Shown here: in pieces, positions 14,140-49,866 of the stretch | How positions within the stretch are numbered: position 1 is the first letter of the stretch | How the letters are laid out: every line of letters begins with the position of its first letter | NCBI GenBank assembly: GCA_964016885.1 | Contig: OZ024740.1 | Coordinates: 59,768,001 to 59,832,000, forward strand | DNA: 64,000 nt | Source: Eledone cirrhosa | Lineage: Eukaryota | Direction of reading: 5' to 3' | The notes under the pieces: generated by a model | The model's input: the letters and a program-made list of their open reading frames with translations, nothing else | What the model was told of the DNA's origin: nothing | The model's database searches: none | Position numbers and translations under genes: made by a program

Positions 14140-14766
14140 ATATATACGACGGAAAAAATGAAACGAAATTTCATTTCCCACTCTTAGTACGGCTGTTACT
14201 TAAATATAAGTATGTACACGTACATACATATATGTATACAGACGTACAGTAGTATGTATATATATATACATACATGCACACATATATATATGTACGTATG
14301 GATTCACCGAACATTTATTATAATGCTCGATGTGTTTGTAAACAAACATCCCGTATTAAGCCGTAGTGTCTAGCAACCATCGTTGCTCGTTTACTCAACA
14401 CTGACAAAGGAACGCTGTACTAGTGTCAAGCTTATTAGCTATCGTCAGCAACGTATACCTTCCTGCCAGATTGTTGAACGTATATACTTACCTTATACAT
14501 ATTAACGGCTGAGTAGCCCAATTTGCATAAGTTAATAAGCTTGAAACTAGTACAGCGTTCCTTTGTCAGTGTTGAGCAAACGAGCAACGTTGGTTGCTAG
14601 ACACTACGGCTTAATACGGGATGTTTGTTTACAAACACATCGAGCATTATAATAAATGTTCGGTGAATCCATACGTACATATATATATGTGTGCATGTAT
14701 GTATATATATATACATATTACTGTACGTCTGTATACATATATGTATGTACGTGTACATACTTATAT
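14140..14766 (-). mobile_element. Penelope-type terminal repeat (family D) with inverted partial copy 14533-14766
   Basis: About 230-bp inverted duplication; related copies at 26330-26575, 52740-53220 and 4340-4378; contains an HHR. Confidence 0.7.
14412..14454 (-). ncRNA. Type I hammerhead ribozyme, core-mutated (GACA for GAAA)
   Basis: acgttg CTGACGA t-agct-aata-agct-t GACA ctag TA cagcgt. Confidence 0.75.
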
Positions 14767-15015
14767 ATATATATATATATATATATATATATGTGTGTGT
14801 GTGTGTGTATAATATATATATTATACACACACACACACACACACACACACACACACACACACACACATGTATGTATATATATATATATATATATATATAT
14901 ATATGTATGTATGTAGATTTATATATATATATATTACCTGTACACTAGACACAGAGCTCTGGTTAGAAACCATTAGTAACAAAAACAAATCCTCCATTCC
15001 CATTATGCCAAACCC

Positions 15016-15906
15016 ATGACTTCCAAATATCTGATCCACCGAAACTCAGCTGTTTCGGACCACACCAAAATCAACATACTGATTGCGCATTTGGTACGGG
15101 TGATGAGAAACGTGTCCCGCATGTGCAACCCCGAAGAACTAGAGAGACACATACAACACTTCATCCACCGTATGCAGTTCTCTGGTTACAATCAGAGAGA
15201 TAAAATCAGAGTGTATAGAGGAGCCAGAACCAAATGGGAAAAAATGGTAAATAATGATACAAATGGGACCTGCCCCTTATATAGGAGCAAATTTTGGAAT
15301 AGAATAGAAAGAACTAGGAATAAGGCTAATAGAATAAACTCATGGTATGATAGCAATAAATACCAGAGTGTAATGTTCATCGATACAACCCCTAGAGGTG
15401 AATTAGCTTACAAATTTAGAAGGGCCCTAGATAAACATAAACTCAATATTAAGATAGTAGAAAGACCAGGTACCTCCATAAAAACACTTATTAGCAATTC
15501 ATACCCTTTTCAAAGACCTCACTGTATAGATAAGAAATGTATAATCTGTAAACTAAGCCCCTATATTAACTGTAAAACTAGAAATGTAGTATATAGCATA
15601 AGATGTACTGAAGGACAATGTAGAGATAAGAATATAGTGTACATAGGTGAGACAGCTCGTAGTATAGGAGAACGGATAAATGAACACTGGCGAGAGCTTC
15701 AAGATAGAAAAGAATCATCTGTACTCTACCAACATGCTAAAATAGAACATAAGGGTAAATTAGAGAACATAGAAATAAAAATAGAATCTACACACAGAAA
15801 AGACGCACTGTTTAGACAAATCACAGGGGCAATAAACATAAATGAACTCCAACCAAAATTAAATAGAAAACATGAATGGAATAGCAACATCACAACTTAC
15901 AATTAA
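15016..15906 (+). CDS. Penelope-like element ORF, 5'-truncated (RT thumb plus GIY-YIG endonuclease); element spans about 14940-16340
   Basis: Cys cluster, NVVYSIRC...VYIGETARSIGERINEH, open for 296 aa. Confidence 0.85.
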   Translation: MTSKYLIHRNSAVSDHTKINILIAHLVRVMRNVSRMCNPEELERHIQHFIHRMQFSGYNQRDKIRVYRGARTKWEKMVNNDTNGTCPLYRSKFWNRIERTRNKANRINSWYDSNKYQSVMFIDTTPRGELAYKFRRALDKHKLNIKIVERPGTSIKTLISNSYPFQRPHCIDKKCIICKLSPYINCKTRNVVYSIRCTEGQCRDKNIVYIGETARSIGERINEHWRELQDRKESSVLYQHAKIEHKGKLENIEIKIESTHRKDALFRQITGAININELQPKLNRKHEWNSNITTYN

Positions 15907-16562
15907 GGACAAAATGAAAACACACACACACATAGAACAAACAACCAACCAGTAACATGTAAATAAACAAATAAATAAACAAATATAAACACACAGAGAC
16001 ACCCGGATGTAACACATGCGCAAACTAAGCACACAACACACACACAAACAAGATGGCGTAGGACAGACCAAAGGAGAGGCACAAAAACAAAGAAAACAAT
16101 CCCAGTCACTGAAGAGGCCACAGAATGTGTTACAAAAGAACTTTGACAATATATGAACAACCGTCCGGTTGTAGAACCAACCAACCAACCGGAAATTTAT
16201 AAATTTAATTTATAATAAATTGGAGTGAAAGCAACTGGTGCGTGTGTTTCTTATTGGCTACATGACCCTCCCAAAGCATAACAATATCGGTTTCAACACA
16301 CGTTTTCAGATAAAGAATCTTTCTAAACAAATTCAGAAACGAAATATATATATATATATATGTATGTATAAATGTATATTTATATATATTTATATATATA
16401 TATATATATATATATATATATATATATATATATATATATATATATATATATATATATATATATATATATATATATATATATATATATATATATATATGTG
16501 TGTATGTATGAATGTAGATTTATATATATATCTATATATATATATATATATATATATATATA

Positions 16563-47976: not shown

Positions 47977-48060
47977 ACCTTTACCGATCGGTTTCGAATC
48001 CCAAAAATAAAACGGAGACCATACGGCCTTCGTTGCAAAGAAAGATTCTCGTCAGAAGGT
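47977..48060 (-). ncRNA. Type I hammerhead ribozyme
   Basis: Same motif as 28099-28182. Confidence 0.85.
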
Positions 48061-48459
48061 TCTTTTCATTCAAAGAATATAAAATTCCTGAATTTAAATC
48101 ACAAACTAGCGCTATCAAAACTGTTCCTGGGATGAGAGTGGATGATGTAGAAACAGGTTTATCAAGGGCCGAAGCAAAGATAGAGGCAAAAGGAGGTAGG
48201 TCAAACTAGCCACAGCTATTGCTAGCAGCAGTCAGAACGACCAAATTTGTTCTCAACGTTAGTGGAGGTAGTAGTAATAGGAAATACGTTCCTTCACGCA
48301 CAAGGCGCCAAGGTACGCATGTATTGTCCAACCAAATGCCAGTGTGGTTCAATGGCGGGTTAATAAATTAACGAGCCAGAACAAATATAAACAAGGTTTA
48401 GCAAATAATGAAAAAGTTTCAAAATAAATTTTAAAAAATTGACTTTACCTACTATAGTT

Positions 48460-48543
48460 ACCTTTACCGATCGGTTTCGAATCCCAAAAATAAAACGGAG
48501 ACCATACGGCCTTCGTTGCAAAGAAAGATTCTCGTCAGAAGGT
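48460..48543 (-). ncRNA. Type I hammerhead ribozyme
   Basis: Same motif, 483 bp away. Confidence 0.85.
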
Positions 48544-49866
48544 TCTTTTCATTCAAAGAATATAAAATTGCTGAATTTAAATCACAAACTAGCGCTATCA
48601 AAACTGTTCCTGGGATGAGAGTGGATGATGTAGAAACAGGTTTATCAAGGGCCGAAGCAAAGGATTCGAAACCGATCGGTAAAGGTAACTATAGTAGGTA
48701 AAGTCAATTTTTTAAAATTTATTTTGAAACTTTTTCATTATTTGCTAAACCTTGTTTATATTTGTTCTGGCTCGTTAATTTATTAACCCGCCATTGAACC
48801 ACACTGGCATTTGGTTGGACAATACATGCGTACCTTGGCGCCTTGTGCGTGAAGGAACGTATTTCCTATATATATATATATATATATATATATATATATA
48901 TATATATATATATATATATATATATAATTTTTTGCTCTACATGGCTGAATACAATAAATGTAATCTGAGTTTTTCGAATATTAATAATAATATTCGATTC
49001 CTTTGCAATTATGCAAACAAGCCTCATTTTTAAAGCCATGTCAGTAGAATGAGCCCCTCGTTCTTCCTCTTGTATTGGCATATAAACAGAACTGCAGACA
49101 CTAATGTTTCTGGGTATCACCCTTCGTCAGTACAGCTCACTGTTCACCTGCCAACTGTCAGAGCTAGTGAAAATATATGATATTTTCTAAAAGTGACTGA
49201 CTGGCCTGATTTGCATATTAGCAGACAAGCTGATCAGTCAGGTCTGCATATTAGCAGATCCACTGATCAGCCAGATTTGCATATCAGCAGACTGGCCAGT
49301 CAGATTCCTGTATACGAGCGATAAATTGCCGGCTTTGCCATATTAAAAAAAAAATTACATGTCAACACAAGAGCAAGAACCAGGGGCTCATTCTACTGAC
49401 ATGGCTTTAAAAATGAGGCTTGTTTGCATAATTGCAAACGAATCGAATATTATTATTAATATTTGAAAAACTCAGATTACACACACATACACACACACAT
49501 ATATATATATATATGGATTGAGGGAGGCGAGGCTGTGTGATTACTGATAATGAGTGGTAGAAGGTAAAGCAACATAAACAAGAGATGGACAGTTTCCCTT
49601 CGTCAGCTGTTTACTACGGATCACGGATGTTTCGGCGCATTATATATATATATACATATGTGTGTGTGTGTGTGTGTGTGTGTGTGTGTGTGTGTGTGTG
49701 CGTGTGAAAACATCCCGTTCTTAGAAGACGGCGGTGGAATTTGAAAATGGAATTAGTAACAACAAAAAATGCGGCGAAATTTACAAATTCAATTCAATTC
49801 TCTCTCTCTATATATATATATGTATGTATGTATATATATGTGTGTGCGTGCATGCGTGTGTCTGTG

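Follow-up and report, generated by a model that had tools for sequence, protein, structure and literature searches.

The copying mechanism of Penelope-like elements (PLEs) is still poorly known. Regarding the anatomy of their insertions, the available portions of two reports describe the unit of endonuclease-bearing PLEs as a pseudo-LTR with an adjacent inverted 5′-truncated copy and a one-sided ‘tail’ of 30–40 bp (Craig et al. 2021, PMC8557442; Arkhipova et al. 2013, PMC3846280). As for the reaction itself, PAc, the Poseidon element of Anolis carolinensis, starts reverse transcription internally, just downstream of its hammerhead ribozyme (HHR); both target strands are cleaved and extended, and the substrate is the uncleaved RNA (Frangieh et al. 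2024, PMC11167929). In D. virilis Penelope, the promoter and the start site are located in the pseudo-LTR region and, in the part of the paper considered here, are described as TATA-less (Schostak et al. 2008, PMC2377424). Finally, animal non-LTR retrozymes are tandem HHR repeats for which the portion of the preprint considered here proposes an origin as non-autonomous PLE derivatives (Li, Clavereau and Pollet 2026, 10.64898/2026.07.22.740005).

This work concerns a 64 kb stretch of the genome of Eledone cirrhosa (hereafter, the window), which holds numerous HHR-bearing PLE and retrozyme-like repeats (Table 1). According to the original prediction, the truncated and inverted copies of at least five unrelated families in this window begin inside stem II of the HHR, where the reverse transcriptase (RT) would stall and fold back or switch template. 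The observation was confirmed in part, and its interpretation found partial support: the inner ends of the stubs do pile up beside the ribozyme in some families, and the likely reason is a start of the template RNA at that point rather than a stall of the RT at a hairpin.

Hammerhead-bearing repeats in the window

The pattern CTGANGA-N6-30-GAAA occurs 18 times in the window against 2.75 expected, a number reached by none of 100 shuffles, hence HHR-like cores are enriched. The CUGANGA and GAAA boxes, the UH cleavage site and helices I–III are recognizable by inspection of families A, B, C, D, E and G, with the type I organization of the PLE kind; families P and M have UUGAGAA in place of CUGANGA, which may represent the paired change C3U/G8A, and family K/K2 has the GAAA-stem III-UA half of the HHR alone. 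HHRs were identified by motif because no Rfam hammerhead model matched: there was none within the window at the gathering score, none among the 150 of 262 matches listed in E-value mode and, with E up to 1, none in four canonical P and D loci or in one family G unit. Pfam searches on 15 frames of the window returned hAT and DUF4371 remnants only.

Table 1. Positions of the repeat copies and junctions of the window
Feature	Position	Strand	Description
Family A arm	14151..14529	-	429-nt tandem-type unit; 5′ end at 14529 (unit 357)
Full HHR in family A arm	14400-14449	- (arm 14151..14529)	GAAA mutated to GACA
Family A arm, head-to-head	14530..14766	+	5′ end at unit 25, within stem II (TAATAAGCTT GAAA)
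Family D (gcc-type) stub	22867..22931	-	CTGAGAA core, stem II, GAAAC, GTC; 5′ end 25 nt upstream of GAAAC
Inverted duplicate (11 nt) of the D stub stem II, 3′ strand	22932..22942	-	adjoins (TA)n
Family K2 stub	25356..25537	+	-112 to +69 around GAAACGATCGTAAA; family-typical 5′ end; lacks a canonical HHR core
Family M 33-nt piece	26622..26654	-	inside (TA)n; begins TTCGGGC, stem II loop and 3′ strand
Family G tandem array	27986..29706	+	483-nt unit, 3.5 units; complete HHR, 53-nt stem II; 5′ end ~unit 292, 3′ end unit 80
Family P long arm (A-type)	29759..29893	-	stem II 3′ strand to ~+98 past the cut; ends in (TA)n
Family P short arm	29894..29946	+	palindrome centre gacggctaattc-aca-gaattagccgtc; ends ~+20 past the cut at (TA)n
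Family M 33-nt piece	29973..30005	+	inside (TA)n
Family M copy	30165..30300 (end approximate)	+	5′ end TTCGGGC after TA repeats; runs on into element body
Family P short inverted arm (T-type)	39086..39135	-	5′ end 11 nt upstream of mutated GAAAC
Family P long arm (T-type)	39136..39261	+	5′ end 5 nt upstream of GAAAC; ends at (TA)n
Family G array	47902..48655	-	1.56 units; 5′ end at 48655 (~unit 292), 3′ end unit 80
Family G inverted arm	48662..48869	+	5′ end unit 464 = start of stem II 3′ strand; 3′ end unit 188
Family A copy with HHR	52710..53060	-	itself a head-to-head junction; 5′ ends at unit positions 1 and 305

The pieces are indeed 5′-truncated or inverted PLE-type insertions, and five of the junctions proposed for the window, the three micro-insertions being taken as one, were found in or at stem II. 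At the first one, placed at 14533, the plus arm begins within the stem II of family A, which covers unit positions 24–37; the arm directly abuts the minus arm, so that what had been considered a 70-nt spacer is a part of the latter. The sites at 29893 and 39126 are two palindromes, each centred in the stem II of family P; neither their subfamily nor their centre is the same, and they therefore count as separate events within a single family rather than as two families. At 48662, the plus arm starts with GGATTC, the 3′ strand of the long stem II of family G, and between it and the 5′ end of the minus-strand array there is a 7-nt filler. The three micro-insertions of family M all start with TTCGGGC directly after (TA)n, and they may be the products of one event. 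Two other sites have a different structure: at 22932 the inverted copy of the stem II 3′ strand exists, with 11 nt and not 12, while the main arm retains the core; and the copy at 25361 is not truncated within an HHR, having the 5′ limit usual for its family (-112 in L125 and L127, -108 in L140), no copy of which shows a CUGANGA-type core. Overall, the window gives four families with stem II junctions (A, P, G and M), one fewer than the minimum claimed.

Sampling of arm ends in the genome

Arm ends were sampled in the same genome by means of anchors placed downstream of the cut site, within the first 13–19 Mb of one chromosome; exact anchor matches were required, and for this reason the samples favour young copies. 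The loci of family P were found by exact pattern searches with an anchor at +58 to +79 past the cut, which has 40,724 matches in the genome, and 70 places were examined; the arm lengths of the palindromes were read by hand from their centres, automatic estimates being confounded by self-complementarity. For family D, the anchor from GAAAC to +8 has 31,535 matches, and 85 arms at 70 loci were considered, comprising 21 canonical arms, 8 copies of one composite repeat that were counted apart and 56 others; the latter were tallied by hand, with L302, L313 and L317 corrected by eye. The reference for family A was a natural tandem unit from L047, and its counts exclude L031 (the locus of the window itself), the duplicates L035 and L051, one arm of L034 with 77% identity and TA-rich matches of ≤85% identity. 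An early impression, obtained with the references 53010-52700 and 53060-52650, that most family A copies start just 5′ of the HHR was an artefact, as the copy of the window is a junction at that point. Family G was counted after removal of loci that repeated an array already included, and of the long array L025/L030, in which the stretch analysed stopped short of the 5′ end.

Distribution of the ends in the different families

Family P has a clear hot spot. Among its 70 places, 18 ends are downstream of the cut, 7 are in GAAAC, stem III or GUC, 38 are in stem II, with 37 located within the 3′ half of this stem, and the last 7 are farther upstream; the stop rate is ~5% per nt in the 3′ half of stem II versus ~0.5% per nt before it. 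The genome-wide enrichment expected for stem II thus holds for this family, and not for A (0/47), G (1/22), M (1 to 3 of 28) or D (8/56). In family D, 42 of the 56 arms end 20–31 nt upstream of GAAAC, that is, upstream of the core, and the other 6 end in the core. The ends of A cluster at unit positions 1–19 and 299–347 and those of G at unit positions 264–292. Where A and G have junctions in stem II within the window, these represent common 5′ truncations at scattered positions, conspicuous only to a reader seeking ribozyme remnants.

As for the organization of the stubs, 38 of the first 100 P places hold (-,+) pairs less than 100 nt apart. The two arms of the P palindromes end within 2 nt of each other in 16 of 23 cases, against a permutation mean of 7.6 (P = 5 × 10−5), and the ends range from 3 to 21 nt, varying between loci; when the palindrome is asymmetric, the short arm is the longer one at the centre in 4 cases and the long arm in 5. 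At the other side, the arms of P end at +20 and +98 past the cut, leaving a ‘tail’ of 78 nt on one of them, and those of G at unit positions 80 and 188, with a ‘tail’ of 108 nt. (TA)n flanks nearly all stubs; an AT-rich or (TA)n target together with a one-sided terminal extension was found in P, D, G and M, and partial tandems (pseudo-LTRs) with an adjacent inverted 5′-truncated copy were found in P.

The ORF of family P encodes 784 aa and is just downstream of the HHR, with its ATG at +63; tandem ORF copies recur every 3528–3544 bp (3.53 kb), and L151 has a head-to-head pair of long copies. A 710-aa frame upstream of a canonical P HHR (L151:1470-3602, minus strand) has YRDD and VIYQ...YIGLT motifs, recognized by eye, and some members among its Atlas neighbours carry GIY-YIG, RVT_1 and HTH_animal; Pfam assigned no family to this P frame, even at E up to 10. 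Of 20 long P copies, 17 extend from their 3′ side as far as the HHR next to the ORF, and none ends in stem II; 15 run on for at least ~640 nt upstream of the HHR, to the limit of the stretch fetched. However, it should be noted that these copies are near-identical and many are in tandem arrays, hence they do not represent 17 independent passages of the RT.

Two simple causes for the hot spots were discarded. The stability of the hairpin does not account for them, because the stem II of G, with a predicted −18.9 kcal/mol, is more stable than that of P (−9.2 to −14.6 kcal/mol) and yet G has no hot spot; nor does the distance from the RT start, since arms whose starts are separated by 78 nt terminate at a common base.

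A TATA box upstream of the hot spots

The first T of a TATA box is found in family P at -47 (TATTTAAA) or -49 (TATTTAT) relative to GAAAC, and in family D at -55 (TATAAATA). The hot spot of P, 12–21 nt upstream of GAAAC, is therefore 26–37 nt past the TATA box, and that of D, 22–25 nt upstream of GAAAC, is 30–33 nt past it; metazoan TATA promoters have a spacing of 28–33 nt to the start. YYANWYY-like motifs occur at the hot spots, namely TTAGTCC (A at -18) and CCAGAAT (A at -13) in P, and CCAGATT (A at -25) in D, so that both families have, as motifs, the two parts of a Pol II core promoter: a TATA box ~30 nt upstream and YYANWYY at the start. What the P and D hot spots share is the ~30-nt distance from the TATA box, not the position in the ribozyme. 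D variants with a shifted TATA box also exist, with the first T at ~-49 or -58 (L266, L284).

The junctions are regarded, with slightly more confidence than doubt, as the inner (5′) ends of head-to-head, 5′-truncated PLE insertions in (TA)n, whose hot spots would, judging from these motifs, mark the start of the RNA. The mRNA would begin within the pseudo-LTR: in P inside stem II, because the TATA-like box sits in the stem II loop, and in D at the border between stem I and the core. The RT of the element would then begin internally, only ~40–120 nt downstream of the RNA start, with two start sites in P at ~+20 and ~+98 past the cut. A cDNA would be primed from each of the two nicked strands of the TA target, as for PAc of Anolis in vitro, and the two cDNAs would stop by run-off at a common RNA end; one of them would jump to the end of the other, giving a short inverted arm, 0–2 filler bases and a long arm with the ‘tail’. 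As originally proposed, the cDNAs cross the cleavage site, which implies an uncleaved template; a circular or re-ligated form, the other part of that proposal, is unnecessary, because an RNA starting inside the HHR would lack its 5′ half and would be unable to cleave.

Some observations count against an RNA start at the hot spots. A unit-length mRNA copied in full should begin at the predicted start, and none of the 20 ORF-bearing P copies does so, with 15 of them extending beyond the stretch fetched. The TATA box of the T-type P copies is 2 nt farther upstream, yet their arms are slightly shorter (mean ~13 versus 16 nt, in small samples), and the commonest P arm, of 12 nt, starts with a G after an A, which is not a YR step. 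Finally, no TATA motif explains the end clusters of A and G. A simple TATA rule was tried for these two families and rejected: 4 of 47 A ends fall in the TATA +26..37 windows, which make up 13.5% of the unit, and 0 of 22 G ends.

Alternative explanations

Stalling of the RT at a stable stem II hairpin, or at a protein bound there, followed by fold-back or template switching in all HHR-bearing PLE families, would resemble the template boundary of telomerase: PLE RTs are related to telomerase RT, which uses a protein-bound helix for that purpose. It would account for the fact that 38 of the 45 P arms entering stem II end there, and for several junctions of other families in the window. As a general mechanism it is improbable, because the ends of A and G avoid stem II almost completely, and G has the more stable helix of the two compared; in D the hot spot is beyond stem II and the core, where there is no helix left to unwind; in all 17 long P copies that reach stem II (17/17) the cDNA passed through it; and the P ends come after, not before, the copying of the basal helix. 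The symmetry of the palindromes and the read-through of the long copies fit any fixed RNA end, including one produced by processing, either by an endonuclease acting in or near the stem II loop or by a double-strand-specific RNase acting on the long hairpin; moreover, ~5 of the 70 P ends are located only a few nt from the site of HHR cleavage, suggesting that processed RNAs are sometimes used. Such an origin is unlikely to hold for the hot spots, since the D ends are in a single-stranded or stem I region and not in a hairpin, have no known processing signal and yet are at the same distance from the TATA box as those of P.

Palindromes at inverted junctions have led to the proposal of self-priming for rotifer Penelope elements, as stated in the portion of that report considered here (Arkhipova et al. 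2013, PMC3846280), and the 16 symmetric P palindromes of 23, with 0–2 central bases, are what snap-back of one cDNA would give wherever the RT stops. This leaves unexplained why the stops cluster 30 nt from a TATA box, and some arms are not copyable from a single cDNA: in four palindromes the short arm reaches beyond the long one, and at 12 of 70 loci the short arm extends to stem II and the arm with the ‘tail’ is truncated downstream of it. In addition, the 3′ ends of the two arms always differ, in P as in G, and snap-back appears improbable. The centres would be uninformative on reverse transcription altogether if they arose at the DNA level, by amplification of a few palindromic masters or by trimming of the palindrome tips after insertion. 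Palindromes are unstable, and a few junctions recur: L162 and L186 carry one common rearranged junction, L188 and L107/108 have a common centre, and one D junction is present in the 8 copies of the composite repeat. Nearly all the other centres differ among loci, however, both P subfamilies have both forms, and fillers such as poly-T are present; tip deletions, in turn, would not yield perfect palindromes whose ends keep a constant distance to a TATA box absent from the stubs. DNA-level events are therefore a very improbable source of the hot spots.

With the start of the template RNA as the preferred explanation of the hot spots, a broader proposal can be put forward tentatively, with somewhat less confidence than doubt: the promoter may be built into the ribozyme region, with the P TATA box in the stem II loop, so that the mRNA of the element would start inside the HHR and be uncleavable, and a whole, active HHR would occur only in tandem read-through RNA; the RT would start just downstream on both strands of the TA target, most of the tens of thousands of insertions would be palindromic stubs with the leader and the first ORF codons, and their centres would map PLE transcription starts base by base. 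If the centres of the stubs are RNA starts, the promoter starts of PLE families could be read from genome sequence alone, and the mass of dead-on-arrival head-to-head stubs would be explained by internal RT initiation near the 5′ end of the RNA. The hammerhead, in turn, would gain a testable role, being whole only in the read-through transcripts of tandem copies. The case also advises caution in inferring a ribozyme-based mechanism from junctions that track a promoter.

Comparison with known systems

The insertions described here have much in common with the PLE insertion unit, as far as the portions of the PLE reports considered here describe it: the arms are placed head to head, with palindromes where they meet, the 5′ truncation is extensive, copies occur in tandem, the targets are (TA)n, and there are two possible 3′ ends, with an extra piece on one arm. 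They differ in the size of the ‘tail’, since the P and G values reported above exceed 30–40 bp, and in the junctions of two families (30,000–40,000 matches) that pile up at one spot, tied in the present case to a TATA box ~30 nt upstream and to the HHR. No such link was found in those same portions of the PLE literature or among the results listed by the literature searches. As in D. virilis Penelope, the promoter and the RNA start, here predicted, are in the pseudo-LTR upstream of the ORF; unlike that promoter, TATA-less in the part of the paper considered, a TATA box and initiator-like motifs were read from the sequence, a difference that counts against an RNA start at the hot spots.

Families A and G, with their 429-nt and 483-nt units, resemble the non-LTR retrozymes, insofar as the preprint portion describes these, in that they are repeated in tandem without coding capacity and have a type I HHR and ends like those of PLEs, features that are known here at the sequence level; neither family has a stem II junction hot spot. 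Twin priming in human L1 produces an inverted 5′ part through a second cDNA for which the other target strand serves as primer; the two L1 parts cover different stretches of the RNA, whereas the arms described here correspond to one common stretch and terminate at a common base.

Finally, the case of PAc was established by target-primed reverse transcription in vitro, unlike the present one, which is read from the genome, and the paper on it describes neither stubs ending inside the HHR nor a promoter start inside the HHR (PMC11167929). The two systems share an HHR at the border between pLTR and ORF and an uncleaved template, and would also share internal RT starts in the first part of the ORF and AT-rich DNA cut and extended on both strands.

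Hammerhead families and junctions in the window

The window (G000:C1:59768001-59832000 of a 3.0-Gb animal genome) is AT-rich and dense in (TA)n tracts and repeats, and it contains 18 matches to CTGANGA-N6-30-GAAA, against 2.75 expected; none of 100 shuffles reached 18. Rfam hammerhead models gave no match in the window at gathering score, nor on the canonical copies at E up to 1, so that the hammerhead ribozymes (HHRs) were called by motif reading only: CUGANGA, a stem II hairpin, GAAA, a short stem III with a palindromic loop, UH, and a stem I partner. As for the repeat families, A has a 429-nt tandem-type unit, G a 483-nt tandem unit, and D is a high-copy family of stubs, i.e., short 5'-truncated insertions; B, C, and E are further HHR families named in the window. 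Families P and M have UUGAGAA in place of CUGANGA (sampled loci L091-L120 and L236-L255, and window 29840-29946), which looks like a C3U/G8A paired change; thousands of copies retain this motif, and CUGAGAA is found in some others. K and K2 contain GAAA-CGATCG-UA alone, without a recognisable core. Genome-wide there are 10,950 occurrences of GAAACGATCGTAAA, spread over at least three families (K, K2, and K3; loci L121-L150 and the window); in all of these a conserved CTGATA box precedes it by about 70 nt, and the canonical core is lacking.

The original prediction held that junctions of unrelated Penelope-like element (PLE) insertions recur in stem II, where reverse transcriptase (RT) would stall or fold back. 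Regarding the junctions that it named, those at 14533, placed against a natural tandem unit of family A as reference, and at 48662 do fall in stem II, and three family M pieces begin at TTCGGGC directly after (TA)n, two of them being 33-nt inserts. The palindromes at 29893 and 39126 are centred in the stem II 3' strand of family P, the former in its A-type and the latter in its T-type subfamily; their centres differ, and they are two events of one family. At 22932, a stem II strand is present as an inverted copy of 11 nt; the main arm retains its core and starts 25 nt upstream of GAAAC. The junction at 25361 does not interrupt a ribozyme; this copy shares its 5' limit with other K2 copies, and an HHR core is seen in none of them.

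Coordinates of features in the window
Feature	Position	Strand	Details
U5 spliceosomal RNA gene	7545-7658	+	57.4 bits, gathering score 40; sole Rfam match at gathering score in the window
Family A arm	14530	+	Starts at unit 25 (stem II, 24-37); adjoins minus-strand family A arm with 5' end at unit 357
DNA transposon remnant	19351-19764	-	Weak DUF4371 match
Inverted stem II strand copy	22932
GAAACGATCGTAAA	23039	-
K2 copy	25356-25537
GAAACGATCGTAAA	25468	+
Family G copies	27986-29706; 47902-48869
P/M-type hammerhead (UUGAGAA in place of CUGANGA)	29840-29946
Family P palindromes	29893; 39126
Tandem array	35429-36932		47-bp unit, about 32 copies, 97-100% alike
Inverted repeats	39706-40244; 42254-42793		540 bp, 97.8% alike; each has a family E hammerhead facing inward; bracket about 2 kb related to 22942-24534
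GAAACGATCGTAAA	42130	+
Family B hammerhead copies, head-to-head	46473-47030; 48953-49481		Likeness ends 22 nt upstream of core on both sides; 158-nt spacer between
Inverted family G arm	48662		Starts at GGATTC, 3' strand of 53-nt stem II; preceded by 7 filler bases, then 5' end of minus-strand G array
DNA transposon remnant	58966-59391	+	hAT dimerisation domain, E 7.7e-10

Arm ends of families A, G, M, and K

Copies were sampled with anchors placed downstream of the cut site (starting at GAAA in elements that were too short), and therefore the upstream sequence was not pre-selected; the counts of arm ends (an arm being one of two head-to-head insertion halves) come from exact anchor matches within the first 13-19 Mb of a single chromosome. 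Stem II is not a hot spot in family A, with 0 of 47 ends there and 8 at unit 1-19, just 5' of the HHR or at its start (40 of 1459 candidates scored). For family G (40 of 734 candidates scored), stem II makes up 11% of the unit and received 1 of the 22 ends outside the window, at unit 431; eight ends cluster at unit 264-292. No TATA motif accounts for the end clusters of these two families. Family M has 68 exact matches in the genome; among 28 loci outside the window, 22 are intact to at least 75 nt upstream, and the junction is in the stem II loop in one, at its 5' base in two, and further upstream in two. Nearly all family K copies agree upstream of GAAAC, hence there is no truncation in that part. 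The window stem II junctions of these families are as expected from scattered 5' truncation.

Family G also forms head-to-head pairs in which one arm ends at unit 80 and the other at unit 188, found in the window and at six of the outside loci L002-L024 (L002, L005, L007, L010, L014, and L022, with 190 in L002 and 77 in L022); a seventh outside pair, L016, is 329/188. The pair ends amount to a fixed 108-nt one-sided 3' extension, or tail, with both ends at TA-rich sites.

The hot spot of family P

Family P is where the predicted stem II hot spot exists genome-wide. Its 29-mer from GAAAC to six bases beyond the cut site occurs 36,393 times (the first 100 places include 38 (-,+) pairs, 44-91 nt apart), and a 22-mer at +58 to +79 (nt after the cut site) 40,724 times. 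At the first 70 places, the 5' end of the anchor-bearing arm is in stem II in 38 cases, 37 of them in its 3' half; 18 ends are downstream of the cut site, 7 in GAAAC, stem III, or GUC (about 5 within a few nt of the cut site), and 7 further upstream. The stop rate per base in the 3' half of stem II is about 10 times that before stem II. The typical stub consists of (TA)n, a short inverted arm to about +20, 0-2 filler bases, a long arm to about +98, and (TA)n; the distance of the centre upstream of GAAAC varies between loci, from 3 to 21 nt, and most stubs are thus separate events.

Two variants of this layout were encountered. Locus L205 (G000:C1:10005073-10005393) is a P palindrome with a foreign 27-nt centre, itself palindromic (agcaggtctgaac g gttcagacctgct). 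L162 and L186 (G000:C1, ~1.02 Mb and ~5.75 Mb) share an identical rearranged stub, with the inverted arm to 3 nt upstream of GAAAC joined to an arm starting at the cut site; this points either to renewed copying of a rearranged form or to one and the same deletion arising twice.

As for the complete element, canonical copies extend upstream at least 1.5 kb and lead to a 710-aa frame that contains YRDD and GIY-YIG-like motifs; a Pfam search of the frame found no family, and in its Atlas neighbours part of the members have GIY-YIG, RVT_1, and HTH_animal. Intact frames of 784 aa are frequent, with a tandem spacing of 3.53 kb; in these copies the HHR is just upstream of the ORF, the likely ATG is at +63, and the +98 site falls inside the ORF.

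Origin of the hot spot

The concentration of P ends in stem II is what a stall of RT at this helix would produce, yet such a stall is quite unlikely. Of 20 P copies that contain the ORF, 17 extend from the 3' side as far as the ORF-proximal HHR; none ends in stem II, and 15 continue for at least ~640 nt upstream of the HHR, to the limit of the fetched stretch. At the stub stop rate (38/45), such read-through is expected with a probability below 1e-12, although these copies are near-identical and often tandem, and hence not independent events. Moreover, the predicted stability of stem II is -18.9 kcal/mol in G, which has no hot spot, versus -9.2 to -14.6 kcal/mol in P. Family D decides against the stall. 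There are 31,535 occurrences of its 23-mer (GAAAC to +8), with close (-,+) pairs at 40 of the first 100 places; 85 arms from 70 loci were sampled and, once 21 canonical arms and 8 copies of one composite repeat were set apart, 42 of the 56 remaining ends fell within the stem I 5' strand, 20-31 nt upstream of GAAAC, with 8 in stem II and 6 in the core. The D hot spot is upstream of the core, and both arms retain core and stem II; consequently, the hot spot is not tied to a ribozyme helix.

Both families instead present a TATA box at a suitable distance. In D, canonical copies carry TATAAATA, whose first T is at -55 relative to GAAAC; P has TATTTAAA (A-type, first T at -47) or TATTTAT (T-type, -49), in both cases inside the stem II loop. 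Going downstream, the distance from this first T to the hot spot is 30-33 nt in D and 26-37 nt in P, as is usual between a TATA box and the start site, and initiator-like YYANWYY motifs are present at the hot spots (CCAGATT in D; TTAGTCC and CCAGAAT in P). On these motifs, we lean toward the hot spot being an RNA end made by transcription start, although T-type arms are not longer, contrary to a fixed TATA distance; the commonest P arm starts with G, and none of the 20 ORF-bearing P copies begins at the predicted start. An RNA end produced at the same point by processing is unlikely.

Regarding the palindromes, the two P arms end at most 2 nt apart in 16 of 23 hand-read cases (permutation mean 7.6, P = 5e-5), though the end point varies by locus. 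Their starts, at +20 and +98, are separated by 78 nt, which excludes a distance-dependent stop; combined with the symmetry, this implies that the P template ends at the hot spot or that one arm was copied from the other. The latter corresponds to pure snap-back of a single cDNA, proposed for rotifer elements (PMC3846280); it is unlikely, and it cannot explain the four P palindromes whose short arm reaches beyond the long one, nor the 12 of 70 loci where the short arm enters stem II but the tail-bearing arm is truncated downstream of it. Events at the DNA level are highly improbable. With an RNA end set by transcription start, two cDNAs, one per target strand, would run off the same end and be joined by an end-to-end jump, a step that we infer and that fits both symmetric and asymmetric P cases.

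Comparison with known elements

In the passages and literature listings consulted, no link of junction hot spots to the hammerhead or to a TATA box was found. Several features are already known from other PLEs, namely arms in head-to-head position, palindromes at the junctions, tails, TA targets, internal initiation by RT, and the use of uncleaved RNA (PMC8557442, PMC3846280, PMC11167929). The Penelope of D. virilis has its promoter and start site in the pseudo-LTR, but this promoter is TATA-less (PMC2377424), whereas a TATA box is read in P and D. The layout of P matches that of the Anolis element PAc, in which RT begins internally, shortly after the beginning of the ORF; in PAc each of the two target strands is cut and extended, and the RNA used is uncleaved (PMC11167929).
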